Assembly (NCBI GenBank): GCA_963724775.1
Contig: CAVRWB010000016.1
Location: forward strand, 28,815-92,814
Direction: 5' to 3'
Origin: an uncultured Acidobacteriota bacterium
GTDB lineage: Bacteria > Acidobacteriota > Vicinamibacteria > Vicinamibacterales > Fen-181
Length of the DNA: 64,000 nt
Shown here: positions 6,631-42,809 of the stretch, one piece after another
Layout: every line of letters begins with the position of its first letter
Numbering within the stretch: position 1 is the stretch's first letter
Program-made: the position numbers and the translations under genes
Notes under the pieces: generated by a model
The model's database searches: none
What the model saw: only the letters and a program-made list of their open reading frames with translations
Told to the model about the DNA's origin: nothing

Positions 6631-7565
6631 ATGTCGATCATGCGGAGCGTGCTTCTGGCGGGTGCCGAGAGCGTGTGGTTGCGCGAGCACGCCATGCGGG
6701 CCCCGTTCGTCCGCCGCTCGGTTTCGCGCTTCATGCCGGGCGAGTCGATGGCCGAGGCGCTCGACGCGTGCCGGCGGCAGCAGGCGGAGCGCGGCACTGG
6801 AACGATCCTCACGCACCTCGGCGAGAACCTCGCGTCGATTGCCGAAGCCGGCCAGGTGACCGAGCACTACCTGCAGCTGCTCGACCGCATCCAGGCGGCG
6901 GGACTCGATGCGCAGGTGTCGGTCAAGCTGACGCAGCTGGGACTCGACCTGGGCCCCGACGCCTGCGCGGCAAACCTGCAGACCCTCGTCGATCGCGCCG
7001 AGGCGCGCGGCAACATGATCTGGATCGACATGGAGAGCAGCAAGTACGTCGATCCGACGCTGGCGCTGTTCCGCCGCGTCCGCCAGCGTTCGGCGCGCGA
7101 CCGGCCTGTGCCTCCAGGCGTACCTCCACCGCAGCGCTGCCGATCTCGATTCGCTGCTTGCCGCTGGCGCCCGCTATTCGCCTGGTCAAGGGCGCCTACA
7201 GGGAGCCACCCGAGATCGCGTTCCCCAAGAAGGCGGACGTGGACGAGAACTACTTCCGGCTGGCCGCTCGAATGCTCCAGCCCGACGTGCCACGAGGCAC
7301 CATGCTCGGTGTGGGCACGCACGACGACAGGCTCATCGAGCGGCTGAGGGCCGTCATCGCGGAGCACCACGTTCCCCCCACCGCCTATGAGTTCGAGATG
7401 CTGTACGGCATCCAGCGGCCCCTTCAAGCGCGGCTGGTTCGCGAAGGCGCGCCGCTCCGGGTGCTGATCAGCTACGGCGAGTTCTGGTTCCCGTGGTACA
7501 TGCGGCGGCTGGCCGAGCGGCCCGCCAACGTGCTGTTCGTGGCAAAAAGCATGTTCGGAGGTTGA
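6631..7565 (+). CDS. Proline dehydrogenase (monofunctional PutA-like), two apparent frameshifts (about 7095 and about 7185)
   Basis: ATG at 6631 with a GAGGGAG RBS. N-terminal part is in the 6568 frame and a middle segment (LCLQAYLHRSAADLDSLLAAGAR) in a third frame. The C-terminal part (IRLVKGAYREPPE...GTHDDRLIERLRAV...ISYGEFWFPWYMRRLAERPANVLFV) is in the 6612 frame. Confidence 0.7.
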
Positions 7566-8100: not shown

Positions 8101-9478
<1,378 letters not shown>

Positions 9479-9485
<7 letters not shown>

Positions 9486-10555
9486 AGGCCTCCAGTCTGG
9501 GTTCCGGCAATGGCCAGGAGATCGGATACGACAGCCACTCCTGTCGCATCGCCGCCCGCGCCGCGCCCGGCGTAGAGCGTGTCGCCGCCGTACTCGCCGG
9601 TGACGAGGACCGCGTTTTCGCAGCCTCGGACGCGGGCGAGCGGTGAGTCGAGGGGCACGAGTTCCGGGCCAACCGACGCGCGGACCGCTTTCAGTTGTCC
9701 GTATCCGAATTCCCGTTTTCCGTTTTCCGTCTTCGGTTTCCCGTTTCGGCCGTCCTGGTCGCGTCCGGCCGGGACGACCGTTGCCCGCGACACCTGCCTG
9801 ATGGTGGCGCCGCGCGCGTGCGCGGCGTCGAAATCCTGCAGGGTGACGCCGGAGATCGACCCGCACGCAATCTCGGACGATGCGATGGCGGTGTCGAAGC
9901 CCACCGAGCAGAGGATCGAGAGCTTGGCCCGCGCGTCGAACCCTTCCACGTCCGCCGCCGGGTCGGCCTCGGCGTAGCCGAGCGCCTGCGCCTCCGCCAG
10001 GGCGTCGTCAAAGGCGATACCGGCCTCTTCCATCCGGGTGAGGATGTAGTTGCACGTGCCGTTGATGACGCCGGTGATGGCGGTGAGCCGGTCGCCCGCC
10101 AGGCCGAGACGGACGGCGTCGAGGACGGGGACGCCGCCAGCCACGGAGGCGCCGAAGCGGAACTGCCGTCGCTGTCGTGCGGCGAGGGCGTTGAATCGGC
10201 GCCCCTCGTCAGCGACGAGCTGCTTGTTCGCCGTGACGACCGACTTTCCCGCCAGCAGGGCGCGGGTGATCCACTCGCGGGCCGGCGAGACGCCGCCGAC
10301 CAACTCGACGAGGACGTCGATGTCCGGCGCGAGGAGATCGTCGAAGCGGGCGGTCCACTCGACGTCGGCGCGCAGCCAGGCCGGCCGCGGCTTCGACTCG
10401 CTGCGCGCGCAGACCCGCACGAGGCGGACGGCCTCGTCTTCGCGCCGCTCGAGGATCCGAGCCACCGCGGTGCCGACCGTCCCGAAACCCACGAGGCCCA
10501 CGCGCACGGCGGGCCGCACCGGCCAGACCGATCGCAGGGCGGATGTGCGTGGCAT
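9479..10555 (-). CDS. hom: Homoserine dehydrogenase with in-frame simple-repeat insertion
   Basis: [13 protein letters not shown]-binding motif, ...TANK..., and a C-terminal ACT-like region. The stop is 1 bp before the metY start, so they form an operon. Residues [18 protein letters not shown] are encoded by the CCGTTTTCCGTTTTCCG repeat at 9713-9750. Confidence 0.8.
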
Positions 10556-10570
10556 GCTGTCCTCCAGTAC

Positions 10571-10612
10571 AAAAGAAAACCCGCCGACAGGTGGTCATCC
10601 TGCCGGCGGGTT
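10571..10612 (-). terminator. Intrinsic-terminator-like hairpin plus U-tract immediately upstream of the hom RBS (attenuator / riboswitch expression platform candidate)
   Basis: On the mRNA (minus) strand: AACCCGCCGGCAGG-AUGACCAC-CUGUCGGCGGGUU followed by UUUCUUUUGU. Then GGAGGA and the ATG of hom. Confidence 0.55.
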
Positions 10613-10639
10613 GCGGTGCTCCGATGGGGTCTGATGCGT

Positions 10640-10723
10640 CTAATCGCGGAGCGGGCGCAAGCCACCGACACGGATGCCCTTCGGCATTCGCATCGACATC
10701 AGGCTCGCCCCGCGCATCAACAT
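10640..10723 (-). other. Candidate 27-aa Met-rich leader peptide uORF (MLMRGASLMSMRMPKGIRVGGLRPLRD) upstream of hom-metY
   Basis: Translated directly from the sequence. It has 5 Met codons, including an LMSMRM run, and no convincing SD, so this is speculative. Confidence 0.2.
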
Positions 10724-10781
10724 GACTTCACTGTCGCAGCAGTCGCGTCCGAGATCAACAGGGAAGTCGGGGTATGACACA

Positions 10782-10870
10782 AGTCGACGGAGTCGACGGA
10801 GTCAACGGAGTCAACGGAGTCGATGGAGTCGACGGAGTCAACGGAGTCCACGGAGTCAATCGAGTCAACC
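10782..10870. repeat. Tandem array A: about 10 copies of the 9-bp unit GTCRACGGA in the divergent hom / esterase promoter region
   Basis: gtcgacggagtcgacggagtcaacggagtcaacggagtcgatggagtcgacggagtcaacggagtccacggagtcaatcgagtcaacc. It is the inverted complement of array B. Confidence 0.8.
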
Positions 10871-10929
10871 CCTGCACTCCTTCACGTTGCCCTTTGCACT
10901 TCGGGTCCAGTCCGCTACCATTTGCGCCC

Positions 10930-12606
10930 ATGTCCCGATATTGCTGCTCCACGGTGCGCGGTGCGGTGGTCGTCGCGATCCTGTCGGTCCTTTCGCTCCC
11001 GTCGCCCGCGAACGCGCAAGCGAAGGCGGTTCGAGCCGGGACCGGGCTCCGGATCGAGATCTCGTTTCCCCAGGCTGCGCATGGCGAGCCGATCACCGGC
11101 CGCGTCTTCTTCATGCTGTCGAAGGCCGGCGACCGCGAGCCGCGGCTGCAGGTTGGCCGGACGGGGGTGCCGTTCTTCGGCCGCGACGTGGAGAAGCTCG
11201 CGCCGGGTCAGGCAGCCGTCATCGACGAGTCCGACCTCGGGACGCCGGTCGAGAGCCTGCGCGACATCCCGGCCGGCGACTACTTCGTCCAGGCGATGGT
11301 GAACGTCTACTCCGAGTTCCGGCGCGCCGACGGCCACGTGCTGTGGATGCACGACGACCAGTGGGAAGGGCAGCAGTGGAACCGGTCGCCGGGAAATCTC
11401 TACAGCGAGGTGCGACAGGTGCGGCTCGATCCCTCGAAGGGTGGGGTCGTGCGCCTGGTCGCCGACAAGATCATTCCGCCCGTACAGGTGCCGCCCGACA
11501 CGCCGTGGGTGAAGCGCTTCAAGTTCCAGAGCGCGTCGCTCACGAAGTTCTGGGGGAGGCCGATCTACCTCGGCGCCACCGTCCTGCTGCCGCGCGACTA
11601 CGACAAAGAGGAAACGCGCTACCCGGTCAACTACGTCCAGGGCCACTTCTCCCTGGCGCCGCCGCTCGGCTTCAACCCGGACTTCAAGCCGACCGAGCGC
11701 GCGGCCTACAACATCGCCCTCGACTGGATGAAGGACGACTTTCCCCGGATGGTCGTCGTCACCTTCCAGCACCCCACGCCGTACTTCGACGACTCGTACG
11801 CGGTCAACTCGGTGAACGTCGGGCCGTACGGCGACGCGATCATGCAGGAGCTGATCCCGGAGGTCGAGAAGCGGTTCCGCGTCATCAGGGAGCCGTATGC
11901 GCGCATCCTGTCCGGCGGTTCCACCGGCGGGTGGGAGTCGCTCGCGCTGCAGATCTTCCACCCGGACTTCTTCGGCGGCGCCTGGTCGTACTGCCCCGAC
12001 TCGGTGACGTTCACGGACGTCGAGGGCATCAACATCTACCAGGACGCGAATGCCTTCTACAAGGAGTTCGGATGGAGGCGGGTGCCGACGATCAACAGCC
12101 GCGAGGTCAACGGGCAAGTGCGCCAGACCTCCGAGCAGCGGAACCACTTCGAGCTGGTGAACGGCACGAAGGGCCGGTCTGGCGAGCAACTGGACATCTG
12201 GTCCGCCGTCTTCGGCCCTGTCGGGAAGGACGGCTACTTCGAACCGCTGTTCGACAAGAGGACGGGCGTGATGAACCCGCAGGTCGCCGAGTACTGGGGT
12301 GAGCACTACGACCTGCTCCGCTACCTCCAGAGGAACTGGGCGGCCCTCGGCCCGAAACTCGTGGACAAGCTGCACGTCTACACCGGCGACGCCGACACGT
12401 ACTTCCTCAACAACTCCACGCGCGAGCTCGAGCAGTGGATGAAGACGACGACGAATCCGCACTACGCGGGCTTCTTCCTTTACGGCGATGGCAAGCCGCA
12501 CTGCTGGGCCGGCCCGGGAACGGCCGGCGACCGCGTCAAGGAGATGGCCGGGTTCATCGCCGCCCACAAGCCAGACGGTGCCACGACCCCCTGGTGGCGG
12601 TACTAA
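10930..12606 (+). CDS. Secreted esterase (enterochelin/esterase-D 'putative esterase' family, alpha/beta hydrolase)
   Basis: Signal peptide MSRYCCSTVRGAVVVAILSVLSLPSPANAQ. GGSTGGWES is a GxSxG nucleophile elbow. The ORF has no frameshift. The upstream in-frame VDG-repeat extension would be encoded by array A and is probably not translated. Confidence 0.6.
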   Translation: MSRYCCSTVRGAVVVAILSVLSLPSPANAQAKAVRAGTGLRIEISFPQAAHGEPITGRVFFMLSKAGDREPRLQVGRTGVPFFGRDVEKLAPGQAAVIDESDLGTPVESLRDIPAGDYFVQAMVNVYSEFRRADGHVLWMHDDQWEGQQWNRSPGNLYSEVRQVRLDPSKGGVVRLVADKIIPPVQVPPDTPWVKRFKFQSASLTKFWGRPIYLGATVLLPRDYDKEETRYPVNYVQGHFSLAPPLGFNPDFKPTERAAYNIALDWMKDDFPRMVVVTFQHPTPYFDDSYAVNSVNVGPYGDAIMQELIPEVEKRFRVIREPYARILSGGSTGGWESLALQIFHPDFFGGAWSYCPDSVTFTDVEGINIYQDANAFYKEFGWRRVPTINSREVNGQVRQTSEQRNHFELVNGTKGRSGEQLDIWSAVFGPVGKDGYFEPLFDKRTGVMNPQVAEYWGEHYDLLRYLQRNWAALGPKLVDKLHVYTGDADTYFLNNSTRELEQWMKTTTNPHYAGFFLYGDGKPHCWAGPGTAGDRVKEMAGFIAAHKPDGATTPWWRY

Positions 12607-12615
12607 TACGGTTTG

Positions 12616-12798
12616 ACTCCGTTGACTCCGTCGACTCTGTTGACTCCGTTGACTCCGTTGACTCCGTTGACTCCGTCGACTCCGTCGACTCCGTTGACTC
12701 CGTCGACTCCGTTGACTCCGTCGACTCCGTTGACTCCGTCGACTCCGTTGACTCCGTCGACTCCGTTGACTCCGTCGACTCCGTCGACTCCGTTCAGC
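12616..12798. repeat. Tandem array B: about 20 copies of the 9-bp unit GACTCCGTY (reverse complement of array A) filling the gap between the esterase stop and the nei stop
   Basis: Read directly from the sequence; the unit alternates GTT and GTC at the end. Confidence 0.85.
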
Positions 12799-13621
12799 GC
12801 TGACACCTCGGGCACCAGTAGGTCCCGCGCGCGTCGGCGCCCTGCTTGAGGTAACTGATCGGGGTGCCGCAGCGTCGGCACGGCTTCCCAGCCCTTCCGT
12901 ACACCCACAACCGTGCGTCCGGATCGGCGCGCCTCGTGGTCCGCCGGTATCCTCCCCAGGTAGCCGCGCCGACGCTGCCGGCATCGATGACGTTCGCGCG
13001 AAGGAGCTCGTGGGCGACAGCGATCAGCTTCGCCACCTGCGCGTCGGTAAGGGAGGCGACGGTTCGAAACGGATCGAGGCCGGAGACGAACAGCACCTCC
13101 GACTTGAACACGTTCCCCACGCCCGCCATCACTCGCTGATTGAGGAGCACGTCGGTAAGCGGCGCGTCCGGCAGCGCCCGGAGGCGGCGTGCTGCCTCGC
13201 CGGCGTCGAACGCCTCGCCCAGCAGGTCCGGCCCGAGTGCCCGCAGCTCTTCGTGCCGCTCGAGATCGCGTGCCGTGAGGAACTCGGCCACCGGCACGTC
13301 GAAGGCGACGGCGACGTACTGGTCCGTGGCCACGACAACCCGCATGGCGGCGCGGGAGCGGCGCCACCGCTCGCCGGGACGGTAGATGTGCCAGCTGCCG
13401 CTCATGCGCATATGCGTGCGGAGATACAGCTCGCCGCTGAACTCGATCAGCAGGTGCTTGCCGACGGCGCGCGCCGCCACGACGGTGCGGCCGGCGATCG
13501 GATGGTCCTGGTCGATGCGCGCGAGGGCCGGCAGGACGGTCTCGAAGGACGTGACCACGCGCCCGGCAAGGGCCTTGTGCAGCGTGCGCGCCGTGCGGAA
13601 GAGCGTGTCGCCTTCGGGCAT
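12794..13621 (-). CDS. nei: Formamidopyrimidine-DNA glycosylase / endonuclease VIII family (Fpg/Nei)
   Basis: N-terminal MPEGDT (catalytic Pro2, Glu3). The H2TH region and a C-terminal zinc finger (CRRCGTPI...YWCPRCQ) are present. Confidence 0.8.
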   Translation of the reverse strand: MPEGDTLFRTARTLHKALAGRVVTSFETVLPALARIDQDHPIAGRTVVAARAVGKHLLIEFSGELYLRTHMRMSGSWHIYRPGERWRRSRAAMRVVVATDQYVAVAFDVPVAEFLTARDLERHEELRALGPDLLGEAFDAGEAARRLRALPDAPLTDVLLNQRVMAGVGNVFKSEVLFVSGLDPFRTVASLTDAQVAKLIAVAHELLRANVIDAGSVGAATWGGYRRTTRRADPDARLWVYGRAGKPCRRCGTPISYLKQGADARGTYWCPRCQR

Positions 13622-13630
13622 GTGGACCAA

Positions 13631-13673
13631 CGGAACGGAGAACTGAGAACGGAGAACTTGGAACTGAGAACTC
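13631..13673. repeat. Degenerate tandem repeat GGAGAACTGAGAACGGAGAACTTGGAACTGAGAAC between the lhr stop and the nei start
   Basis: Read directly from the sequence. It belongs to the AACGGAG / GAGAAC repeat family seen elsewhere in the window. Confidence 0.6.
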
Positions 13674-13730
13674 GCAATCGAGGCCGCGCTCTACCTCTGC
13701 ACTTTGCTCCGTGCACTCCGCGCTGGGTTC

Positions 13731-16700
13731 CTATTCGCGGGGCGGCGCGGCCTGGAAGCCGCCGGGGCGGCGGAGGAAGCCGGCCTCGAGCAGGAAGGGC
13801 GCCATCGGGTGATCCGCCGCTGACCGGCCGTCGATCTCCGCAACGAGCATTCCGTCGCGGTCGCTGCCGCCCGTCGCCAGCCGATACAGTGTCTGCGCAA
13901 CCTCGCGCCCGGTGACGCTCCGCGCCGGCTCGTCCTCGGGCAGGAACGTCAGGAACTGCCGGTCCGCGCGCCCGACGTACGCCGCCAGCATGCCGTTGAC
14001 GATGATGACGCCGGCGCCGACCGAGCGGGTGGGGCCGCGGCCGGACGTGATGGACGAGGCGTGGGGCAGAGCTTCCGCCTCCGCGCGAAGCGCTTCGGCG
14101 CGACCTCGCCGTAGCCTTGGCGAAGGCGGGCCAGCTTTGCCTTCAGGTCTCGGCGACCTGGAAGTCGGCGCGACACCCTGTTCGGCCGACATGGAGGTCG
14201 GCGCGCTGCTTCGCGCCGCCTCGCCCGGCCATCTGAGAATCGCCCCATACGGATTGGCCGGATCCGTCGCCGCCAGGTAGACGGTCTGCGGCGTCTCCGG
14301 TTCGTCGCGTACCGAGCGCAAGAGATCCACGGCCGAGGGGAGCGCGAACTGCGTCGCTCCCAGGCCGCCCACGAAGTAGCCGCGGCGGATCCGCCCCGCC
14401 TCCTCCATCGCCTTCAGCACGTCATACACCGTGCTGAAGCCGCCGGGCAGGTTCTCCACCGCGATTGTCTCCCGCGTGACGATGCCGTGGCGCGTGAGGA
14501 GCTGCGAGGCGACGGCCGCCGCCCACTCGGTGGGGGAGGGATGCGTCCCGACGCGCGCTTCCACGAGGCTCCATCGTCCCTCCGCGGTCGCGGGCGTCAG
14601 GCGGCGCGACCGGAACGGCTGCGTTCGGTCGTGGCGCCGCGAGCGTTTCACTGGCGGCTGCGTGAAGGCGCGCAGCGGGTGGAACGTGTCGTTGGTGACC
14701 AGCCCTCGCCACACCAGGTCCCACAGCGTGTCCACCGTCTCGCGCGGGTAGCCGCCCCCGGCCGCCTGGTGGACGGCGGCGAAGAACGACGCACCCTCGC
14801 GGCGCAGGTGCTGCACGATTCGGGTGGCGCGATCGTCGAGTTCTCCCGCGGCTGCCCGCGGCGGCAGCAGCTTCGCCAGGTGATCGGCCAGGTAGACGGC
14901 GATGCGCCCGTCCCGGTCGCCAAGCGGCTCCACGCCAACCCACGCGATCTCGCCAGCGCTGGTGAGCACGTCCAGGTCGCCCGGCCGGTAGCCGTCGAGG
15001 CGCGACGGCAGGATCTCGCGCTCGAGAAGCGACGCCGGCAGCGGCGCGCCCTGGAGCTGCTCGATGGCATCGAGCAGCGCGTCGAGACCGGATCGTCGGA
15101 CGCCGAGGCCATGCCAGGTCGTCGCGAGGCGGCCCAGCGCAGCCGCGCTCACCGGTTCCACTTCGTGCCGCAGCTTCGCCAGCGAGCGCTGGCGGATCTG
15201 CGCGCAGCACGTCCGCCTCGCACCACTCCCGCCCCACCCGCCCGGGCGTGAACGCGCCCTGCAGCACGCGTCCGCGCGCCGCGAGTTGCGCGAGGGCGCC
15301 AGCGACGGCTCTCGGGGGCAGTCCCAGGCGGGCGGCGACGGCCTCGGTGGGGAACGGCCCGTGCGTCCGCGCGTAGCGCAAGACGAGATCGCCGAGCGGG
15401 ATCGGCAAGCGGTTCGAGGAGCGCATCCGGGAGGCCGAGCGGCAGCGGGGCGCCCAGCGCATCGCGGTACCTGGCGGCATCTTCCACGGCGATGAACCGA
15501 GGCGAACCCGCCACCGGCACCTCGATCGCGCGCCTGTCGGCGACGAGCTCGCGAATCGAGCGTGCGACAATCCCGCTCTCGGAACGCGCGCGAATCTCTT
15601 CCGAATCCAGGTCGCCCAGGCGCAGCAGCATGTCGTGGAGTGCGTCGCGGCTGCGAGCCCGGTAGCGGGGCTCGATCCGCTGCAGCTGCTGTTCCACCTC
15701 GTCGATCACCGCGGGATCCAGCAGCTCCCGCAGTTCCATGTCGCCGAGGAGGTCCTTCAGCTGCGACTGGTCCACCAGCAACGCCTGCGCCCGCCGCTCC
15801 GCGAGCGGCGCGTCGCCGTCGTAGATGAAGTTGGCGGTGTAGGCGAAGAGCAGCGACGAGGCGAACGGCGACGGGGCCTCGGTGTTGATCGTCACCGTTC
15901 GAATCGACCGGCTGCCGACGCGGCCGAGCAGGTCGACGAGCGCCGCCACGTCGAATTGATCCCGAAGGCACTCGCGGTAGGTCTCGAGCAGGGCCGGGAA
16001 CGAGCCGAACCGCGACGCGACGGCCAGCAGGTCGGATGCGCGCTTGCGCTGCTGCCAGAGCGGCGTGCGTGCGCCCGGGCGGCGCCGGGGCAGCAGCAGG
16101 GCGCGGGCGGCCACCTCCCGGAACCGCGCGGCGAACAGCGCGGTGCCACCGAGCTGCCGGAGGAGGAGACGCTCGACCTCCTCGGCAGGCGGCACCAGCA
16201 GCGCGGCGTCCGGCGGCTCGTCGGTGTCCGGGAACCTCACGACAAAGCCATCGTCGGACCACATCGTCTCGACCTCGATGTCGCGCTGCTCCCGGATGCG
16301 GGCCTCCGCGACCATCGCCCACGGTGCCAGGACCTGGCTGCCGTAAGGCGCGAGGACACACACTCGCCAGTCGCCGAGCTCGTCGCGATAGCGCTCGATG
16401 ACGAGCGTCCGATCATCGGGGACCGCCTGGGTGGCCCGCTCCTGGTCGGACAGGTACTGCAGCAGGTTCTCCGCCGCGGTGCGGTCGAGGTCGTGATCCT
16501 TGATCAGCCTGGCGAGCGCTGCGCCGCGCGGCATCCCGCGCAGCTCGCGCACCAGGCGCCCGATCGCCATGCCGAGTTCCAACGGCCGGCCCGGCCGGTC
16601 GCCGTGCCAGAAGGGCATCTTCCCGGGTTCGCCGGGTGCCGGGGACACCGCCACCCGGTCGTGCGTGATCTCCTCGATGCGCCACGTGGACGCGCCGAGC

Positions 16701-18458
16701 ACGAACGTCTCGCCGACCCGCGACTCGAAGACCATCTCCTCGTCCAGCTCGCCCACGCGCGCCGCGCCCTTGGGCGCACCGGCGAGGAACACGCCGTAGA
16801 GACCGCGGTCGGGAATGGTGCCCGCGTTGGCGATGGCCACGCGCCCGGCGCCCTGCCGCGCGGTCAGCGTCCCGCCGATCCGGTCCCAGGTGAGGCGAGG
16901 CCGCAGTTCCGCGAACTCGTCCGACGGGTAACGCCCGGACAGCATGTCGAGGACGCCCTCGAAGATGCCGCGCGAGAGGCTGGCATAGGGCGCGGCGCAG
17001 CGCACGGTGGCGAGGAGGTCGTCCACGCGCCACGGATCGGTCGCGACCGTGGCCACCACCTGCTGCGCGAGCACGTCGAGCGGGTTGCGCGGGTAGCGCG
17101 TCGCCTCGACGAGCCCCTCGTGCATGGCACGGGTGACGGCGGCGCAGGCGACCAGGTCGCCGCGGAATTTCGGGAAGACGACGCCCTCGCTGACCGCGTT
17201 CACCTGGTGGCTGGCGCGGCCGATTCGCTGCATGCCGCTCGCGACCGACGGGGGCGCTTCGATCTGGATGACGAGATCGATGGCGCCCATGTCGATCCCG
17301 AGTTCCAGCGACGAGGTGGCGACGAGCGCCGGGATTCGTCCCGCCTTCAGCGCGTCCTCGATCTCGACGCGTTGCTCGCGCGCCAGCGAGCCGTGGTGCG
17401 CCCGCGCGATCGTCTCGCCCGCCAGCTCGTTCAGGGATGCCGGCCAGGCGCTCCGCGAGGCGCCGGCTGTTCGCGAAGAGCAGCGTGCTCCGGTGAGCGC
17501 GAATCAGGTCGAGCAGGCGCGGGTGGATGCTCGACCAGATCGACGGCGCGGCGGCACCCTGCGCGGCCGGTCCGCTTGGGATCTCGATCGGCTTGGCCAG
17601 CTTCGCCAGGTCCTCGACCGGCACCTCCACCTTCAGCGCCAGCCGCTTGGGCTGCCGTGCGTCGATGACGGCGACGGGCCGGTACTCGATGGCTGGCGCG
17701 TCGGCGGAGAACTCGTCGTGCAGCTCGCCACGGAGGTCGGGCGCGCCCTGGGGTTTCCGCTTGGAGGTGTGGCGCGGACCTTCCGGCTCCTTCTTGACCG
17801 CTCCGCCGAGGAACCGCGCGACTTCGTCGAGCGGCCGCTGCGTGGCAGACAGGCCGATGCGCTGAAGCGTTCGCGGGCAGACGGCCTGCAGCCGCTCGAG
17901 CGACAGCGCGAGATGCGCGCCGCGCTTGGTGGGCACCAGCGCGTGGATCTCGTCCACGATGACCGTCTCGACCGAGCGAAGCACCTCGCGGGCCCGGGAC
18001 GAGAGCAGGAGGTAGAGCGACTCGGGAGTCGTGATGAGGATGTCGGCCGGCTCGCGCAAAAACCGCGCGCGTTCGGCGGACGGCGTGTCGCCCGTGCGGA
18101 CCGAGACGGCGGGTGGCGTGAACGACTCGCCCCGCGTTTGCGCGAGATTGGCGATGCCTGCGATGGGGGATCGCAGGTTCCGCTCGACGTCCACCGCGAG
18201 CGCCTTCAGCGGCGACACGTAGAGGACCCGGCACCGCGCGGAGCGCTCGGGCAGCGGTGAGAACATCACCCGGTTGACCGCCCACAGGAAGGCCGCGAGC
18301 GTCTTCCCGCTGCCGGTCGGCGACAGGATGAGCGTGGACTCCCCCCGCGCAATCGCCGGCCAGCCGAGCGCCTGCGGGGTCGTGGGCTCGCCGAACGAGG
18401 CGGCAAACCACTGCGCCACGGCGGGGTGGAACAGGCTCAGCGGGGACGGACGGGGCAT
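13731..18458 (-). CDS. lhr: Lhr-type large ATP-dependent helicase (DEAD/DEAH + Lhr C-terminal domains), at least 3-4 apparent frameshifts
   Basis: N-terminal LILSPTGSGKTLAAFL (motif I) and VIVDEIHAL (motif II). The middle contains MGAIDLVIQIEAPPSVASGMQRIGRASH (motifs V/VI). The winged-helix and Lhr C-terminal domains are spread over the 16413, 15149, 14422 and 13731 frames; one shift is near 17445 (LAERLAG|LNELAGE). Confidence 0.8.
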
Positions 18459-18474
18459 GGGGAATTCTATGATG

Positions 18475-18570
18475 GGATTGACGATTGACGATTGACGAGT
18501 GGCGATTGACGAGTGTGACGGCGACCGTCCCGAATTCGTCAATCATCAGTCGGCAATCGTCATTTGCCGA
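18475..18570. repeat. (GATTGACGA)n-type heptamer/nonamer tandem repeat plus a related TCGTCAATC...GGCAATCGTCATTTGCC segment between the lhr start and the upstream gene
   Basis: gattgacgattgacgattgacgagtggcgattgacgagtgtgacgg. Confidence 0.6.
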
Positions 18571-18971
18571 TCTGCTGATCCCCCGCACTCCGTACACGTC
18601 CCGTCCTCGAACATCCGTTCCGGCGCCGTGGGCCGGCCGCACTGCACGCAGGGCGTGTAGGTGGCGCGGCGCGAATCGCGGGCAGCGCGGATGAGGGCGT
18701 TGAGGCTGGCGAGGGCGTGAATCTCCGGCATGCGGCGCCATTGGACGCTGCCGAACAGGATCGGCCGGACGGACAGGTCGTTGGGTCCGTCCCACTCGAC
18801 GGCGTATTCCGACACCGAGGCCATCGAGCGCGTGAGCCGAACGACGACTTCGCCCGGGTCGCCGCCGACGAGGACCACGGACCCGTCGCGTACTGGCTCC
18901 TCGACAACCGGCTGCGGCAGCTCGTGCCTCACCGAGGTCAGGAGCGCTTCCCACTCGAGCCTGTCGGCCAT
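18546..18971 (-). CDS. Hypothetical protein with C-terminal CxxC...CxxC zinc-ribbon, immediately upstream of lhr
   Basis: ORF with the C-terminus TPCVQCGRPTAPERMFEDGTCTECGG. No recognisable family. Confidence 0.35.
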   Translation of the reverse strand: MADRLEWEALLTSVRHELPQPVVEEPVRDGSVVLVGGDPGEVVVRLTRSMASVSEYAVEWDGPNDLSVRPILFGSVQWRRMPEIHALASLNALIRAARDSRRATYTPCVQCGRPTAPERMFEDGTCTECGGSADRQMTIAD

Positions 18972-18984
18972 GTCGGAATTCTAG

Positions 18985-19067
<83 letters not shown>

Positions 19068-19095
19068 GGGCAAGCTGGCGACCTTTCTTGACCGT

Positions 19096-19846: not shown

Positions 19847-21235
19847 GTGAGCGACAACGATTCGAAAACCGGCGAAGCCAAGGTGCGCGAGTTCGTCGAC
19901 GGGTTCCACCGCAAGCTGACGCGCCAGGCGGTGCTGTCGTTCGCCAGCTGCGTGCACTGCGGCCTCTGCACCGACTCGTGCCACTACTACCTCGCGACCG
20001 GCGATCCCGAGATGGCGCCGGCCTACAAGGCCGACCAGGTGCGGAAGCTGTTCAAGGCGGAAGTGGACTGGCTGGGCCGGATCGCGCCCTGGTGGGTGGG
20101 CGGACGCAAGGTGTCCGACGAGGCGCAGCTCCACGCCCTCAAGGACGTCGTCTTCGGCTCCTGCACGATGTGCCGCCGCTGCACCTTCTCCTGCCCGTTC
20201 GGAGTGGACAAGGGCCTGATCATGCGCACGGCGCGCGGGTTGTTGACGGCGCAGGGCATCGCGCCGGCGGGCGTGCTGGCCGTGAACAAGGACCAGTGGG
20301 AAACCGGCAACCAGATGGCGGTCTCCCAGGAGGACTACCTCGAGACGCTCGACTGGCTGCAGGACGAACTGCGCGGCGAGACGGGCGACCCCGAGGCCGC
20401 GATCCCGATCGACAAGCCGGGCGCACGCATCGTGTACGTGGTGAACCCGCGCGAAATCAAGTACGCCCCGCTGTCGCTCCTCGCCGCCGCCAAGATCTTC
20501 CACGCGGTCGGCGAAGACTGGACGATGCCATCGGTCGGCTGGGACAACACGAGCTTCGGCCTCTTCTCGGGCGACGACGCCCTTGGCGCCCACATCGGCA
20601 AGCTGGCGTACGACCAGGCGATCAAGCTCGGCGTGCAGAAGATGGTCGTGTCCGAGTGCGGGCACGGCCTGCGCGCGACCAAGTGGGAAGCGCCGAACTG
20701 GGCGGGGATGGATCTCCCGTTCCCGATCGAAAGCTTCATCGAGACGATGGTGCAGTACGTCAACGAGGGCCGGCTGGTCCTCGACCGGTCGCGCAACCCC
20801 AAGCCGGTGACCTATCACGACCCGTGCAACGTCGCGCGGTCGGGCGGCATGACGGAGGAGCCGCGCTTCCTGCTCGAGAAGGCGTGCGCGGACTTCCGGG
20901 AGATGACGCCCAATCGGCAGGAGAACTTCTGCTGCACGGGCGGCGGCGGTGCGATGTCGATGTCCGAGTACACCCCGCGGCGGCTGCAGACGGCGAAGAT
21001 CAAGGCCGACCAGATCACGGCCACCGGCGCGCAGGCCGTCGCCACCGCCTGCCACAACTGCATCGACGGCCTGACGGACCTGATCAAGCACTACAAGCTC
21101 AACGTGCCGGTGCGGAACGTGTGCGAGTTCGTGGCAGATGCGATGGTGGTGGACGAGAAGGGCCGGACGAGAATCGGCTTAGGGCTTGGGGCTCAAGGCT
21201 CAGGGAAACCCGATCCGACATGGCCCTCACTCTGA
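19847..21235 (+). CDS. Fe-S oxidoreductase with two 4Fe-4S ferredoxin motifs and two CCG domains (HdrD/DsrK/GlpC/GlcF family)
   Basis: CVHCGLCTDSC and CTMCRRCTFSCP motifs. CCG-domain cysteines are present (ECGHG...DPCNV; FCCTGGGG...ACHNC). Confidence 0.7.
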   Translation: MSDNDSKTGEAKVREFVDGFHRKLTRQAVLSFASCVHCGLCTDSCHYYLATGDPEMAPAYKADQVRKLFKAEVDWLGRIAPWWVGGRKVSDEAQLHALKDVVFGSCTMCRRCTFSCPFGVDKGLIMRTARGLLTAQGIAPAGVLAVNKDQWETGNQMAVSQEDYLETLDWLQDELRGETGDPEAAIPIDKPGARIVYVVNPREIKYAPLSLLAAAKIFHAVGEDWTMPSVGWDNTSFGLFSGDDALGAHIGKLAYDQAIKLGVQKMVVSECGHGLRATKWEAPNWAGMDLPFPIESFIETMVQYVNEGRLVLDRSRNPKPVTYHDPCNVARSGGMTEEPRFLLEKACADFREMTPNRQENFCCTGGGGAMSMSEYTPRRLQTAKIKADQITATGAQAVATACHNCIDGLTDLIKHYKLNVPVRNVCEFVADAMVVDEKGRTRIGLGLGAQGSGKPDPTWPSL

Positions 21236-21252
21236 GCCGTAAGCCCTGAGCC

Positions 21253-22047
21253 TTAAGCCTTCATTTCGAACCTCATACAGCACTGCCCGAAGTAGATCTC
21301 GTCGCCCGGCTGGAGCCTGACGCCGCGCGGGCTGCCGCTCGGCAGCTCGATCGTGCGGCCGTCGCGGAAAATGCGCGTGCCGTGCGAGCTGTGGTCGTCG
21401 AAGAGGCGGTACTCGCCCGAGGCCGAACGCAGGATGTGAGCCTGGGCGCGCGATACCGTCTCGTTCGCCCCTTCACCCCCCTCGGAGAAGACCACCTGGT
21501 TGCGCCGCGCCACCCGGCGCTCCTTGTCGAGCACCTCGGCGATTCGCCCGATGTTCGTCCGCGCTGCGGTCAGGGCGTAGGCCTTGCGCGTGGTCGCGCC
21601 TTTCACGACGACGAGTTGAGCGACAGCGCCAGGCTGCGGGTTGGCGACCGAGGCCGCCACCGTCGCCTGGTCGCCTGCAACCTGGAACACACGACCGGTC
21701 TCCCAGTCGGCTCCCTGCTTTCGGATGTACCGCAGCCGCACTTCGAGACCAGGGACCTTCGCGCAGCCCGCCTCGCGCAGCCGCTCCTCGATTGCCGTTC
21801 GCAGGCCGGCCTCACCGCCCAGGACCGCGTCGATGGCCGCGCGGCGCCTGGTGTTGCCGACGACGATGGCGACGTCGACGCGGGTGTAGGGAAAAACCGG
21901 CTTCGAGCGCGGGCCTGGCTGGGCCAGCTCCTCGACCTCGTCGAGAATCGCCCGCCGCATCTCGACCGGCTCCAGCGGCACGTCGCCGCGCGCGGCCAGC
22001 TTTTCAATCCGCTTCTCGAGCTTGGCAACCTTGTCGAAGATGCCCAT
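21253..22047 (-). CDS. FHA-domain protein (FhaA-like: N-terminal DUF3662-like region, C-terminal FHA)
   Basis: The C-terminal region (NIGR...SRAQAHI...GTRIFRDG) is FHA-like. The N-terminus MGIFDKVAKLEKRIE is FhaA-like. Confidence 0.6.
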   Translation of the reverse strand: MGIFDKVAKLEKRIEKLAARGDVPLEPVEMRRAILDEVEELAQPGPRSKPVFPYTRVDVAIVVGNTRRRAAIDAVLGGEAGLRTAIEERLREAGCAKVPGLEVRLRYIRKQGADWETGRVFQVAGDQATVAASVANPQPGAVAQLVVVKGATTRKAYALTAARTNIGRIAEVLDKERRVARRNQVVFSEGGEGANETVSRAQAHILRSASGEYRLFDDHSSHGTRIFRDGRTIELPSGSPRGVRLQPGDEIYFGQCCMRFEMKA

Positions 22048-22084
22048 AGCGATCTCACGAGGATATACCGCAGCAGGCGCAGAG

Positions 22085-22272
22085 ACAGGCGGGACGCCTG
22101 TCCTACGGCCTGCCGCACCGCTGAACAGGCGGCGAGACGCCTGTCCTACGGCCTACCGCACCGACAGGCGAGACGCCTGTCCTACGGCCTACGCCGACAG
22201 GCGACCCTGCCACCGACAGGCGAGACGCCTGTCCTACGGCCTGCCGCACCGACAGGCGGGACGCCTGTCCTA
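22085..22272. repeat. Five to six tandem copies of an about 37-bp unit GACAGGCGRGACGCCTGTCCTACGGCCTRCCGCACC, each with a 7-bp-stem hairpin; no unique spacers
   Basis: Read directly from the sequence. The last copy overlaps the stop codon of the SEDS-PBP gene. Confidence 0.75.
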
Positions 22273-25200
22273 CTGGACCAGACCCAGCTCGCGCGCGGTC
22301 GTGACGATGCGACCGGCGATCGGGGCCGCGACGCTCGCGCCGTAGCCGCCGTGCTCCACGATGACGGCAAACGCGATGCGCTGCCGGGCCGACCCGTACG
22401 GCGCGAAGCCCACGAACCACGAATGCGACGGCGCATCCTGCACTTCGGCGGTACCCGTCTTGCCGGCAATCGGCGGCTCGATCCCTTTCAGGCTGCGGCC
22501 CGTGCCCTCGAGCACCACCTCGCGCATCGCGCGCGCCAGCGTCTGCGCGTCGGCTGCCGACAGGATCGGCCGCGGCGGGTCCACCCGCTGGTTCGTCTCG
22601 TCGGCGACCCAGCGTCCCTGCGGCATCGCCCCCCCGCCGGCGATCGTGGCGGCGACTCGCGCCATCTTCAACGGCGATGCGAGGACCTGGCCCTGGCCGT
22701 ACGCGGCGAAGGGCAGCAGGTCGCGAACCGCGCGCGGGTTGGCCGGCGGCGCGAGCGGAATTTCGTAGAGATCGGCTGTCTCCTGCAGGGCCGGCGCGCC
22801 AATGTGCAGGCCCAGTTGGGCGAAGTAGGCGTTGCAGGAGACAACGAGGCCGCGTTCCAGGTCGATCGTGCCATGCGGCGTCCTGTCGGCCGGATCGTCG
22901 CGAATCGGCCGGCCCCACCCCGGGATCTTCTGCCCGACGCGCCCGTCCGGCAGCCGTTCGCACGTGAACGGCTGGTGCAGGAGCGCCGGGTTCTTGCGGA
23001 GCGCGGCGCTGGCCGTGACCAGCTTGAAGCTGGAGCCGGGTGGATACATGCCGTAGCGCGCGCGATCGAGCAGCGCCGCCTCGCGTTCTTCCGGCGAGGC
23101 GTTGCGCGAGGTCGGCTGCGAGCCTTCCGCGGCGGGCCACGGGTAGCTGACCGCCGCCAGGAGGTCGCCGTCGCCTGACAGCACGACCGCCGCCCCCTCC
23201 TTGCGCCCGGCCTGGTCGACTCCGCTTTTCACGATCTCGCCCAGCTTCAACTGCATCCGGACGTCGATCGAGAGGCGGACGTCGCGCGGCCGCGCGAGCA
23301 GCCGCTTCACCGACTCATCGTCCGGGTTGTACCGCTTGCGGAGGAGGGGGATCAGCTCGGTGAGATCCCGTCGAAGGACCCGGGTCTTCGCGCCGGTCCG
23401 CGCGTCCGGCACCTCGACCACCCTCGCGTGGTCGTCGTAACCGCGCAGCCGCGCGTCGCTGTCCCGCTCGACGAACGACGTGTTGCTTGCCGCCCAGTTG
23501 GCCTGCGTGCGGAAATCGCCGAGCAGATGGTACGTCAGGCCGCCGAAGGGGTAGCATCGCGCTCCGCCAGTCCCGCACGCTGGCGCAGGCGTGACGCCCA
23601 GCTTCGTCAGGTCCTCCGCGTGACCGGCGAGATCTGCCGGCCGGCTCGTGGCGAGGGGAATGCCGTTCCGGTCGAAGATCGTCCCTCGCTCGATCAGCCG
23701 TGCCACGGCGAGCAGCCGCGGGTTGTACTCGAAACGGCGCTCGCCGTCGGCCTGCACCGTCAGCGCCGGGGCGATGAGGGTCCGGTTGGGGTTGACCACC
23801 TGCACCATGGCCGCCCGGCCCAGCGCGGCGAGGAGCAGGACGGCCACGGCGCCGGCGAGCGCCAGCGCCGGGCGCTCGAACTCCGGCTTCGGGGCAGCAT
23901 CCTGCGCGCGCGCGCCGATCGCGAGGATCATCCCGATCGCGAACAGGTTGGCGATCATCGAGGAGCGGCCGTAGCTGAGAAACGGCGTCGCCACGCCGGT
24001 GAGCGGCATGAGGCCGAGCAGGCCGGCGGCGATCAGCGCGAGCTGCAGGACCAGTCCGAGGGTCAGGCCAAGCGCCAGGAAGAACGTGTAGTCGCCGGGC
24101 GCCCTCAGCGCGATGCGCAGGCAGCGCCAGGCGACGAGCCCGAACAGGACGACAACGGCCGCGATCCCCGCGAACCCCAGTTCCTCGCCGACCACCGCGA
24201 GGATCAGATCGGTGTGACCGGCCGGGATCAGCCGCGGATCGCCCAGGCCGAGCCCGGTGCCGGAGACCGCGCCAGCGGCGAGCGCCCAGAGCGCGTGCGC
24301 GACCTGATCGCCGCCGCGGACGACATTGTCCCAGGGCGACATCCACATCTGCACGCGCTGGACCACGGTATGCGGGAAGCCAAGCAGGTAGCCGGCCAGG
24401 AATCCGGAGACGAGCAGCCCCAGCCCGACGCCGACCATCGTCAGACGGCGCCTCGCAACGCCGTACATCGCGAGGAACACGCAGGCGAGCACCAGCGCGG
24501 GCCCGAGGTCCTTCTGCAGGAAGAAGAACACCAGGATGAGCGCCATCCCGACGAGGACCGGCAGCACGAAGTCCAGGCGCGGGACGTCGAACCCGAAGCG
24601 CGCGGCGCCGCCCAGGCGAGGCTCCTTGAGCGAGCGGAGCAGCTCCCAGCGGTTGGCGAAGTAGCCCGCGAGAAACAAGACGACCAGGACGCGTATGGCT
24701 TCGACCGGCTGCGCGCCGAGCAGGTTGACCTTGGCGTCGCTCGTGCCCGGCCCGCTGCCGAAGATGATCAACAGCACGGAGAGGCCGATGGCGCCGAGCA
24801 GCGGCACGTAGCTCAGGCGCCGCAGCTGCGAGCGTTGAAGATCGACCAGCCGCACGAGCATGAGCCCGATGAGGCCGACGACCACGCCTTGCGAGAAGCG
24901 CGGAAACAGCGCGGCGTCACGAAGGGGATCGCGCAGGCTGATCATCATCGCGAAACCGACGCCGCACAGCAGGTGGACAGCGGGCAGGAGCAGCGGATCC
25001 GACGAGAGCCGGCGCGCGCGAGCCGAGATCCAGGCGACGTAGAACGCCGCCACGAACAGCGCGCTCGCGAGGATGAGATCCGTGCGGAATGTTCGCCAGG
25101 CGCGCACGACGAGCGACGGCCGCAGCGCGCCGAGCTGCGACGGCGTCAGCAGCGGGACGGTGACAGTCGTGGAATCCGGCTTCAGCCGGATCTGACCGGC

Positions 25201-33134: not shown

Positions 33135-34527
33135 ATGCACGCGCACATCCTGGTCTTCGAGCCGCCCGGTCAGTCCCTTGCCGACCTGCGCGGCGTCATC
33201 GAGCGGGTTCTTGCGGACTCGGCGGACGTGGAGACGGTCTCCGACGCCTCCGCCTTGCTTCAGCGGGTTCGCCGCGACGCGTCGCTGGACCTGGTCGTGG
33301 TTCCCTATTCGGGGAATGAGGAGGCCGGAGGCCGGCGCGAGCGTGCGGAGCCTGAGGGCCTGCGATGCCGAGTTGCCGATCGTGGCGGTGGCGACGCACG
33401 GCGACGTGAAGCTGGCCGCGGAGGCGGTCAGCGCCGGTGCCACGGACTTCCTCGTGCGCGGCGATCGCCTCGAAGAACGGGTGCGAACCCTGCTCGGAAA
33501 GCTGCGGCGCATCGTCCTGCTGTTGCGGCAGAACCGGTCGCTCGCCGAGCAGAACCGGCAGCTGCGGGGAACTGATGCGGAGCGGTCTCGCCTCGTCGGT
33601 GAGTCGCTGCCGATCCGGGAGGTGCGGGAGCGCATTGCGCGCGTCGCGGTGATTCCGCGCCCCGTGTTGATCCTCGGCGAGCGCGGCACGGGCAAGGAGC
33701 TGGTGGCGCGGGCGATTCACGCCGCGTCGGGGCGAACCGACGGGCCGTTCGTTGCCGTCAACTGTGCGGCGTTTCCCGAAGCCCTGCTCGAGAGCGAGCT
33801 GTTCGGCCACGAGAAGGGCGCCTTCACGGGCGCCGACCGCCTCGTGCCGGGCAAGTTCGAGCAGGCGTCGGGCGGGACGCTCTTCCTCGACGAGATCTCG
33901 CACATGCCGACCGCCTTCCAGCAGAAGATCCTGCGGGTGGTCGAGTACGGCACGTTCGCCCGGGTTGGCGGCACGCGGGACGTGCGGGCCGACGTACGCG
34001 TGGTCGCCGCCAGCAATGCCGACCTCGAGCAGGGCATTCGAGACGGATGGTTCCTCGCCGACCTGTACGATCGCCTCGCGTTCGACGTGGTGCGGGTGCC
34101 GCCGCTGCGCGAGCGGCGGGGCGACGTTCCGATCCTGGCGACGCACTTTCTTCGCGAGTTCCTCCGCGAGGTGCCCGCGCTCGGTGAGAAGCCGTTTGCC
34201 GCGGACGCGATGGCCGCGCTGGAGCGTTACGCGTTCCCGGGCAACGTGCGCGAGCTGAAGACCATCATCGAGCGCGCGGCCTACCGCGACACCACGCAGG
34301 AGATCAACGTCGAGGACCTCGCGCTGCCCCGCGACGCGACCAACGGCGCGGAAGGCACCTTCGAAGAGCGCGTGGCCGCCTACGAACGCCGGCTCGTCGA
34401 GCATGCGCTGGCGGCCGCGGGAGGCAACCAGGCGGAGGCCGCGCGCAGCCTCGGCCTGGCGTATCACCGGTTCCGGTACTACCTGCAGAAAGGCAGGACA
34501 GCGCGGACCTCGGAACGGCGAACGTAG
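33135..34527 (+). CDS. Sigma-54-dependent transcriptional activator (NtrC family) with apparently degenerate receiver domain; apparent frameshift near 33330
   Basis: AAA+ sigma-54 interaction domain (GERGTGKELVARAIH, GAFTGA, ESELFGHEKGAFTGA) and a C-terminal Fis-type HTH. The N-terminal receiver lacks the usual DD pocket and the phospho-acceptor Asp (ILVFEPPG...LDLVVVPYS). Confidence 0.75.
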
Positions 34528-34565
34528 AACGGAGAACCGAGAACTGAGAACGTAGAACGGAGAAG
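34510..34565. repeat. GAACGKAGAAC-type tandem repeats overlapping the last codons and stop of the sigma-54 activator gene
   Basis: ctcggaacggcgaacgtagaacggagaaccgagaactgagaacgtagaacggagaagcg. Confidence 0.6.
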
Positions 34566-37322: not shown

Positions 37323-37671
37323 GAAACAATCTAAGAAGAGAGACACAGAGACACGGAGGCGACCCCGGGGGAACCCTTCGGGCGGTCGGCGGAGCCGACC
37401 GCCGCCGGCGGGTGGGGGGACGCGCCGCGCGAACACGCCTCCATGCGCCCCGGGCGTGCTCGCTCGGCGCGTCCCGCCTCCCGCCGCCGCGCGCCGATGG
37501 CGCGCGCGAAGGGCGGAGCGGTCGCTCGGCTCTGTGTCTTTTCCGGTCTTCTCTGTGCCTCTGTGCCTCTCTTCTTGATTCGTCAGGTGGTGGGCGGTAC
37601 CTGTGGGCGGAGCAAATCGCCAAATCGCCAAATCGTGAAATCGCCAAATCGCAAAATGGCCAAAATCTCCC
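37323..37671. repeat. Repeat-rich intergenic region: GAGACACAGAGACAC, its inverted complement TCTGTGCCTCTGTGCCTC, and (AAATCGCC)n x6 immediately before the glycyl-radical enzyme start
   Basis: Read directly from the sequence 37330-37370 and 37540-37670. Confidence 0.6.
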
Positions 37672-41547: not shown

Positions 41548-41690
41548 AGAACTAGAGAGAACGTAGAACGTAGAACGTTGAACGTAGAACTGAGAGACGA
41601 GAACCGGTCCGATCAGCTCTCGGTTTACGTTTTCAGTGGTTCTACGTTCTCACTTCTACGTTCTCACTTCTCAATTCGGTCTACTTTCCC
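41545..41690. repeat. (GAACGTAGAAC)n tandem repeats followed by inverted copies GTTCTACGTTCTCACTTCTACGTTCTCAC
   Basis: gaacgtagaacgtagaacgttgaacgtagaactgagagacgagaacc...ttttcagtggttctacgttctcacttctacgttctcacttctc. Confidence 0.65.
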
Positions 41691-42556: not shown

Positions 42557-42809
42557 GTCCCCATGCTCCTTTGTAGTACTGGCCGCGCCTGGGGGGCGAT
42601 CCCGGTGCCGGCCGGTTGAGCTGGTCGCAAGTTTCATGCCTGTGCCGTATCCAGGCAATCTCGGGGAAAAACGCCGTGAAAACGCGGATGGCTCCCGGCC
42701 GCGCCTGTCACAATCGATATCAGCTGTGCAAAAAGGTATGCCCGACGCAAAGGGCCCGTCGGCATGCGCCAGCGGGCCCCTTTTCCGTTCTCCGTCTTCC
42801 GTTCTCCGT

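Follow-up and report, generated by a model that had tools for sequence, protein, structure and literature searches.

The window analysed here is a stretch of 64,000 nt from an uncultured member of the Acidobacteriota (Vicinamibacterales, Fen-181; assembly GCA_963724775.1, contig CAVRWB010000016.1, positions 28,815-92,814). In it, an esterase gene is bracketed by two tandem arrays of the same 9-bp unit, array A upstream and array B downstream, which are inverted relative to each other. We think that both are slippage-driven intergenic arrays of a class that is known in other phyla and very dense here, and that their inverted arrangement around the gene is inherited, as a result of local copying and nothing more; we put the probability of this reading at about 0.6. 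The arrays exist, they keep their orientation in related genomes while their copy number varies, and they belong to a lineage-wide class of arrays in which the insertions and deletions (indels) between relatives are concentrated. On present evidence, arrays A and B are ordinary members of a poorly understood class of intergenic array, and not a switch.

Array A lies between the leader and promoter of hom (homoserine dehydrogenase by its Pfam match), which runs leftwards from position 10555 and is divergent from the esterase gene, and the esterase start. Array B occupies the whole of the convergent gap between the esterase stop codon (TAA, 12604-12606) and the stop codon of the DNA glycosylase gene nei (TCA at 12794-12796, which is TGA on the minus strand), and directly abuts the latter. 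By Tandem Repeats Finder both have a period of 9, with 87% matches and the consensus AGTCAACGG for array A, and 90% matches and the consensus TTGACTCCG, its exact reverse complement, for array B; 82 of 88 bases are identical between the two arrays in inverted orientation. The two-unit pattern GTCRACGGAGTCRACGGA, with at most 2 mismatches allowed, has 26 matches in the window, against an average of 0.04 in shuffled sequences: seven are in array A, all on the plus strand, and 19 are in array B, all on the minus strand, with no match elsewhere in the 64 kb. The numbers of copies of the 9-bp unit are thus beyond chance and fall within the definition of a long simple sequence repeat (SSR). The 6-bp core of the unit, GTYRAC, is itself a palindrome, and the 3-nt linker (GGA versus TCC) alone sets the orientation of a unit. 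Much of array B has a higher-order period of 18 bp, in which TTGACTCCG alternates with TCGACTCCG. The initial annotation had reported mutually inverted arrays of about 10 and about 20 copies, one in the divergent hom/esterase promoter region and one filling the gap between the esterase and nei; all of this holds, with the copy numbers and extents refined as in Table 1.

Array A is in frame with the esterase if the gene is read from an ATG at position 10774, giving an open reading frame (ORF) of 610 aa. However, similarity to the closest relative begins only at residue 53 of this ORF, which is the ATG at 10930, and in a related genome (L173, see below) the upstream frame, read from the sequence, meets a stop before it reaches the esterase. 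Therefore, array A is not coding.

Three other assemblies share the gene order Lhr-nei-esterase-hom-metY with the window. One, L173, is an NCBI metagenome-assembled genome (GCA_024640805.1) with 93.6% identity to the window over 14.4 kb, and the other two, L174 and L175, are long-read-style contigs from ENA, each about 95.8% identical to the window. We recovered the loci of the relatives through the nei protein read from the ATG at 13621 (100% identical to P0241 over 275 aa); exact-protein look-ups gave no match for the esterase, with either of two candidate starts, or for nei with a TTG start. All three assemblies have both arrays at the positions seen in the window, with the inverted arrangement and the orientation of the esterase unchanged, and since they are independent of the window the arrays are not an assembly artefact. 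Copy number is what differs. Array B has 20.2 copies in the window, 28.2 in L174, 5.5 in L173, and about 7, with noise, in L175 (a poor assembly in which the esterase gene is fragmented). The 72 bp gained in L174 include a duplicated 54-bp block bearing a rare CTCTG variant, so this marked duplication is a structured change and not noise. Array A has the same 9.8 copies in L174 and L175 as in the window, and the 172-bp region that holds it is base-for-base identical in these three, its closest assemblies; in L173 there are instead three 9-mers, then five GTCGA pentamers, then GTCAAC. The slippage-prone copy number that the initial annotation proposed is borne out by these counts.

Array A begins directly after a block, TATGACACA, that is kept in L173 and L174, and array B ends at the nei stop codon throughout; in L173 it is preceded by a heptamer array (GATTGRC x4) and 24 unique bases. 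In two more distant loci, L081 and L084, where the esterase is 80-82% identical, this gene is likewise divergent from hom, but there are no 9-mer arrays; both contigs end in a GAACTGA heptamer array just past the esterase stop codon. L081 keeps TATGACACA and has another repeat after it (about 20 bp, x3), a few bases past the start position of array A. Arrays A and B thus arose in the lineage to which the window and L173 belong.

We counted arrays with units of 5-12 bp and at least 3.5 copies, and classified them as coding or intergenic by inspection (crude gene calls from GC content at third codon positions, GC3, over-extend ORFs upstream). There are 13 such arrays in the window, about one per 5 kb, and 11 of them are intergenic; by a crude estimate, intergenic DNA makes up at least 16% of the window. 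Families of units recur at several loci–for example, GAACKGA occurs at 13633, 34513, 41557 and 42783, and GATTGAC occurs at 18476 and, in L173, after the esterase stop codon. Two tight inverted pairs of heptamer arrays, at 21176 and 41557, would by their sequence form long imperfect hairpins. When we enlarged the set to the window plus 80 loci around related esterase genes, the period was 7 in 51 of 81 arrays and 9 in 11 of them. Arrays are frequent in the loci labelled as Vicinamibacterales or Acidobacteria and nearly absent in those of Bryobacteraceae/Solibacteraceae. Of the 38 related loci that we checked, 9 have an array whose start is no more than 14 nt from where the esterase match ends, with a different unit each time. 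The 80 loci have no synteny with the window, probably due to paralogy; we do not take this as a sign of mobility, and we used these loci for statistics on the class of arrays alone.

In the comparisons of the window with L173, L174 and L175, most indels of at least 4-6 bp lie in or beside arrays, and the few elsewhere are mainly in Lhr (versus L173). The array-linked indels relative to L173 are in arrays A and B, at 13669, and at 18475-18544, 18984-19066, 21169-21259 and 22055-22276. As in long SSRs generally, copy number is polymorphic among relatives, and within these 64 kb of the genome the excess of arrays is mainly non-coding and dominated by heptamers. The esterase locus, which the initial annotation treated as special, is actually one case of dense, lineage-wide intergenic arrays of short units. 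In the literature that we searched, we found no report of such arrays for Vicinamibacterales or Acidobacteria.

Table 1. Features of the window, in order of position.
Feature	Position	Strand	Basis or remark
Array of GCGTCRA and GTCAACG units	8101-8179		Between cupredoxin gene and metY
hom leader: Met-rich mini-ORF, long hairpin, intrinsic terminator with U-tract	10556-10723	-
Putative hom promoter: -35 TTGATC (10758-10753), 17-nt spacer, -10 GACAGT (10735-10730)	10730-10758	-	Suggested by conservation
Array A: 9.8 tandem copies of GTCRACGGA, non-coding	10782-10869	+	Tandem Repeats Finder, pattern scan
Putative esterase promoter: -35 TTTGCA (10893-10898), 17-nt spacer, -10 TACCAT (10916-10921)	10893-10921	+	Suggested by conservation
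Esterase gene, PF00756, 558 aa	10930-12606	+	Pfam match; homology to P0002 begins at ATG 10930
Array B: 20.2 tandem copies of GACTCCGTY	12613-12794	+	Tandem Repeats Finder, pattern scan
nei, Fpg/Nei DNA glycosylase, begins MPEGDT at ATG 13621	12794-13621	-	Pfam matches
Heptamer array GAACGGA/GAACTGA (GAACKGA), x5.7	13633-13672	+	11 nt upstream of nei ATG; 4.9 copies in L173
Array of GATTGAC	18476-18512		Unit CGATTTTT/CGATTTGG instead in L173
Array of GCAGTGG, x12	18987-19072
Tight inverted heptamer pair, GGCTYAG and complement	21176-21261		Absent in L173, truncated in L174
Tandem repeat of 36-41 bp, about 4.5 copies	22088-22273		Intergenic gap; about 137 bp shorter in L173
Array of GAACGGA	34513-34564
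Array of CAAATCGC	37613-37664
Tight inverted heptamer pair, AGAACGT and complement	41557-41677
Array of GAACKGA family	42783-42810

A candidate promoter for the esterase lies between array A and the ATG, which follows 8 nt after its TACCAT hexamer. The two hexamers and their spacing are kept in L173 (TTTGAA-N17-TACCAT), while the 17-nt spacer differs at five positions and the adjoining 25-35 bp upstream cannot be aligned. The candidate matches the consensus at 8 of 12 positions, which is below the threshold of the consensus scanner, and the scanner found no sigma-70-type promoter anywhere in 10500-13800. We infer from the conserved footprint that it is the esterase promoter, that the mRNA is leaderless or nearly so, and that array A is not transcribed with the gene. 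The esterase gene in the window lacks the TAGAAT box and the Shine-Dalgarno sequence that are present in L081 and L084. Leaderless starts seem to be normal in this organism, because two minus-strand genes have TAGAAT 5-6 nt before the ATG, with a tandem array immediately upstream (regions ~18440-18512 and ~18960-19072), and because the hom leader also looks leaderless.

On the other side of array A, the putative hom promoter is kept in L173, L174 and L081 (TTGACG-N17-GATAGT). Array A is upstream of both promoters, 24 bp from the -35 hexamer of hom and 23 bp from that of the esterase. The hom leader has a leaderless mini-ORF of 27 codons (10723-10640; MLMRGASLMSMRMPKGIRVGGLRPLRD*) with five Met in the first 13 codons, a long hairpin that overlaps the mini-ORF, and an intrinsic terminator (10612-10578) whose U-tract precedes the hom ATG. 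It looks like a methionine leader-peptide attenuator, and the arrangement of promoter, mini-ORF, hairpin and terminator is kept in L173, L174 and L081. Rfam 15 has no match at its gathering threshold in the window, and none at E ≤ 1 in 10540-12830. Inside hom itself, a degenerate CCGTTTT-like heptamer array (9685-9747) is in frame and encodes an inserted stretch of about 21 aa in the homoserine dehydrogenase domain.

The N-terminus of the esterase (MSRYCCSTVRGAVVVAILSVLSLPSPANA/QA), judged by eye, resembles a Sec signal peptide. We considered whether the gene was acquired horizontally and rejected this: its GC3 of 0.88 is typical of the window, and its lower total GC is due to the second codon position. 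Relative to L173, single-base insertions in the window break the frames of metY (at 8949, 9065 and 9091) and Lhr (at 15201, 15396 and 17439); these are probably consensus errors of long-read sequencing, not pseudogenes. At position 8203 the window lacks a stretch of about 364 bp that is present in L174 and L175.

A scan of metagenomes for three units of this 9-mer in a row returned 88 stretches, and in 40 of the 62 high-GC loci the units build a hairpin of the closed form CTCAC-(ACGGAGTCA)n-short loop-(reverse-complement units)-GTGAG. These 9-mer hairpins (L085-L172; for example L104, L112, L148 and L171) comprise several subfamilies with longer inverted flanks that end in ATACC...GGTAT. Their arms have from 2 to about 12 copies of the unit and are 5-80 nt apart, with one element, in L100, whose arms are about 180 bp apart. 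In one sample, dozens of copies of the element are spread over at least 13 large contigs, and it is also present in other soil metagenomes; the EF-G on one hairpin-bearing contig is 95% identical to that of Longimicrobium (Gemmatimonadota). It looks like a dispersed element similar to a miniature inverted-repeat transposable element (MITE) or a repetitive extragenic palindrome (REP), and Rfam has no match in 12 loci that bear it. The possibility that arrays A and B descend from this element was rejected, because the window has neither the CTCAC/GTGAG closing motifs nor the outer flanks (the repeats alone match), and because the element is in a different phylum. We treat the 9-mer common to the two as a matter of convergence or of some other link, and not of membership. 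We likewise rejected a scenario in which the esterase was inserted into a pre-existing hairpin array, because relatives without 9-mer arrays already have the esterase beside hom. We also rejected avoidance of GTYRAC as a restriction site: the depletion of GTCGAC is no more than mild (29 observed, 46 expected), and GTCAAC/GTTGAC occur as expected.

In the reading that we favor, arrays A and B are hypervariable simple-sequence arrays of one 9-bp unit, belonging to an intergenic population whose units are mostly 7 bp and sometimes 8-9 bp long. Such arrays would gain and lose blocks of 9, 18 and 54 bp by slippage during replication and by unequal recombination, until expansion is stopped by sequence under selection, which for array B would be the two stop codons and for array A the block on the side of the hom promoter and the promoter of the esterase. 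The inverted relationship would record one local event that copied an array across the gene in the opposite orientation. It is inherited, since it is already present in L173 at 93.6% identity, and would not be an active switch. Common descent of the two arrays is suggested by the fact that the one 9-mer family of the 64 kb (GTCAACGGA) is found in both of these neighboring gaps. Related units cluster locally (GTCAACG at 8141, GTCAACGGA at 10782 and 12613), which fits a local spread. The inverted copy could have arisen by an inversion, one of whose breakpoints lay within an ancestral array and left two inverted half-arrays, with a later flip through recombination between the halves restoring the orientation of the gene; by a template switch at the palindromic core; or by ectopic conversion between nearby arrays. 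All three routes fit the data, which do not tell them apart. The esterase would be transcribed from its own promoter between array A and the ATG, so that array A stays outside the mRNA, and array B would be the 3' region that the convergent transcripts of the esterase gene and nei have in common, able to fold into a long imperfect hairpin in the esterase sense. Neither array would have a dedicated function.

Several observations weigh against this. Pure neutrality does not account for a single gene having arrays of one unit on either side, and same-unit arrays also bracket relatives of the esterase in other lineages (L082, L053 and L001, discussed below). Three assemblies have the same array A despite differences of about 4% in other parts, a stability that is unexpected for a neutral array prone to slippage. 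Array B has about twice as many copies as array A in the window and again in L173; this might point to a coupling between the arrays, but two data points prove nothing. The esterase promoter is weak, so transcription may still pass through array A. Finally, the window, L174 and L175 seem to come from long-read assemblies that contain indel errors, and the 82-95 small indels that separate L174 and L175 from the window look like such errors, so that exact copy numbers are somewhat uncertain, although period, orientation and position are robust.

The stability of array A would fit with the arrays being functional elements in cis: sites for protein binding at GTYRAC every 9 bp, an insulator between the divergent promoters of hom and the esterase, or, between the convergent esterase and nei, a bidirectional terminator or 3' stabilizer that works without a U-tract. 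The folding of array B is also in favor of a function. In the esterase sense its predicted free energy is -72.2 kcal/mol, lower than that of shuffled sequences (z = -3.65), and the fold consists of stacked 6-bp GUYGAC helices with 3x3 UCC loops between them. The minus strand of array B (z = -0.33) and array A (z = -0.9 and -1.8) do not beat shuffles. By this folding model, array B may possibly act as a 3' stabilizer or a U-tract-free terminator for the esterase. Arrays also lie exactly at gene boundaries in many relatives, and the same families of units are used repeatedly. However, a stabilizer or terminator role is not general to the class, because most of its units are not palindromic and are unable to fold. 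Moreover, units at equal positions are wholly different between relatives, an entire array may be found in one genome and missing from another that is 94-96% identical (for example, the pair at 21176), and the organism has canonical U-tract terminators such as the one in the hom leader. We therefore regard a cis-acting function as unlikely.

The initial annotation also proposed that the two arrays, if present on one RNA, would pair into a long stem around the esterase ORF, and the fold that we computed agrees with this. In the minimum-energy structure of a hypothetical transcript of about 2 kb (10775-12800), 85 of the 88 nt of array A are predicted to pair with array B, in a duplex of -174 kcal/mol. 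A stem of about 88 bp around the ORF might direct processing by RNase III or protect the ends of the mRNA, as do the stems of rRNA precursors. The polarity (GGAGUCRAC on the 5' side, its complement on the 3' side) is that of the tight Longimicrobium hairpins, the inverted arrangement is retained in L173, and the missing TAGAAT box and Shine-Dalgarno sequence of the window esterase would be consistent with a longer transcript. What makes a transcript containing both arrays unlikely is the conserved promoter-like footprint between array A and the esterase ATG. The region upstream of array A holds no plus-strand gene, just the divergent hom promoter, the three 9-mers left in array A of L173 would limit the stem to at most 27 bp, and array B folds well on its own. 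We consider this role for the arrays quite improbable.

We see an equally small chance that changes in copy number tune expression, with slippage in array A altering the spacing or context of the promoters and slippage in array B altering the length of the 3' untranslated region (UTR), giving heritable variation. Copy number does vary between relatives, and array A is close to both -35 hexamers. But the 9-bp unit is a multiple of three and causes no frameshift, array A is non-coding and lies outside both of the -35/-10 spacers, and its length is constant among the three closest assemblies. The initial annotation suggested a contingency locus; one in the classical sense is not supported. Arrays beside unrelated housekeeping genes behave in the same way, which argues against an adaptive role specific to this locus.

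Brackets made of one repeat unit are not confined to this esterase. The most elaborate case is L082, where nested inverted arrays (6997-7112 and 9721-9985; outer 9-mer GGGCAGGTA, inner 7-mer GACAYCG, and a common non-repeat junction, GGACGACG) enclose a 2.6-kb segment with a DUF4097 gene and a relative of the esterase. In L053 and L001, an esterase relative lies between two same-unit arrays in direct orientation. L082 has a more distant relative, L176 (about 83% nucleotide identity in the esterase), which shows the same gene order and neither nested arrays nor an inversion. Among the listed pairs of arrays that are more than 1 kb apart, leaving aside the window and L173, three of seven flank the esterase where about one is expected; this excess is suggestive, though far from significance, and by design the loci are centered on the esterase. 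A little less probable than the RNA stem or the tuning of expression is that such gene-bracketing arrays are a recurrent, selected architecture in these soil lineages, being an unrecognized kind of gene-boundary element and not slippage debris; brackets in the form of tight hairpins are common, and one of these is the dispersed Longimicrobium element. If they were, the brackets might insulate or process single-gene transcripts through long RNA or cruciform stems, or act as substrates of a recombination that moves or flips gene cassettes.

Least probable of all, and in our view very unlikely, is that the arrays flip or mobilize the esterase, or that they are the separated arms of a hairpin-type mobile element. 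The inverted identity of arrays A and B is enough for homologous recombination, the L082 arrays share a junction that is not itself repetitive, and the 9-mer is the stem of the MITE-like Longimicrobium hairpin, with arms that vary in copy number and can be as far apart as those of L100; yet the orientation of the esterase segment does not differ among the six genomes (the window, L173, L174, L175, L081 and L084; a small sample, from assemblies only), it is already beside hom where there are no 9-mer arrays, the flanks of arrays A and B have no homology beyond the repeats themselves, the typical GC3 of the esterase gives no sign of foreign origin, and no recombinase or transposase gene is nearby (no recombinase among the Pfam labels of the genes that were called in L173 and L174 up to about 8 kb away). 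An inversion switch, as the initial annotation imagined, would in any case not switch the esterase, because its likely promoter lies inside the segment.

The arrays matter for several practical reasons. Because repeat frames are free of stops, arrays spawn false ORFs–for example, in L174 a 610-aa 'esterase' (9088-10920) and a 94-aa ORF over array B (8807-9091). Contigs assembled from short reads break in arrays at the ends of genes, as in L081 and L084. The locus is a clean, dated example of array turnover between genomes that are 94-96% identical, pinned to the boundaries of genes, and Vicinamibacterales-like soil bacteria appear to be unusually rich in arrays, a point not mentioned in the literature that we searched. 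If bracketing proved to be functional, it would provide a handle on the role of intergenic heptamer arrays in general.

Among known systems, the invertible segments fimS and hin and the Bacteroides invertons are similar to this locus in that inverted repeats flank a segment of DNA. Unlike them, this locus has no gene for a site-specific recombinase beside it, its repeats are long tandem arrays and not short, defined sites, a whole gene lies inside with its putative promoter, and a single orientation occurs in four genomes. Phase-variable SSR loci (in Haemophilus, Neisseria, and Moraxella uspA1/uspA2) also have an SSR near a promoter or UTR whose copies are changed by slippage, but in our case the unit is a multiple of three, the array is outside the ORF and the -35/-10 spacer, the host is a free-living soil bacterium, and housekeeping loci are affected alike. 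The Longimicrobium hairpin element shares an identical 9-mer, GGAGTCAAC, in its 5' arm and the complement in its 3' arm; unlike the window arrays, it has CTCAC...GTGAG closure, ATACC...GGTAT flanks, closely spaced arms and dozens of copies.

Lineage-specific intergenic heptamers are closer in kind. The short tandemly repeated repetitive (STRR) sequences of cyanobacteria, TAACTGA of Beggiatoaceae, and GGGAATC of Xanthomonas and Nostoc vary in copy number and have no known function (PMC4679880, PMC4692102). As in those systems, a family of units recurs between genes in the window, in many cases a few tens of bases or less from a start or stop codon, and the GAACTGA/GAACGGA family of the window is one base away from TAACTGA. 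In contrast, arrays A and B are made of a 9-mer with a palindromic core that is not G-rich (which leaves no G-quadruplex reading), we found no sequence identity between the unit of the window and STRR units, and the units within one genome are far more diverse. The nearest match is with long SSRs (LSSRs), or variable-number tandem repeats (VNTRs). As summarized in PMC4679880 and PMC4692102 from Mrazek 2007, LSSRs have units of 5-11 nt, most commonly heptamers, are typical of large, high-GC genomes of non-pathogens, and are attributed to slippage. The arrays of the window resemble this class in having short units arranged head to tail and concentrated in non-coding DNA of a large, high-GC genome of a free-living bacterium, in being dominated by heptamers, in being polymorphic in copy number, and in having slippage as the proposed cause, and they differ from it in their density of about one array per 5 kb, in abutting start and stop codons, and in forming many inverted pairs.

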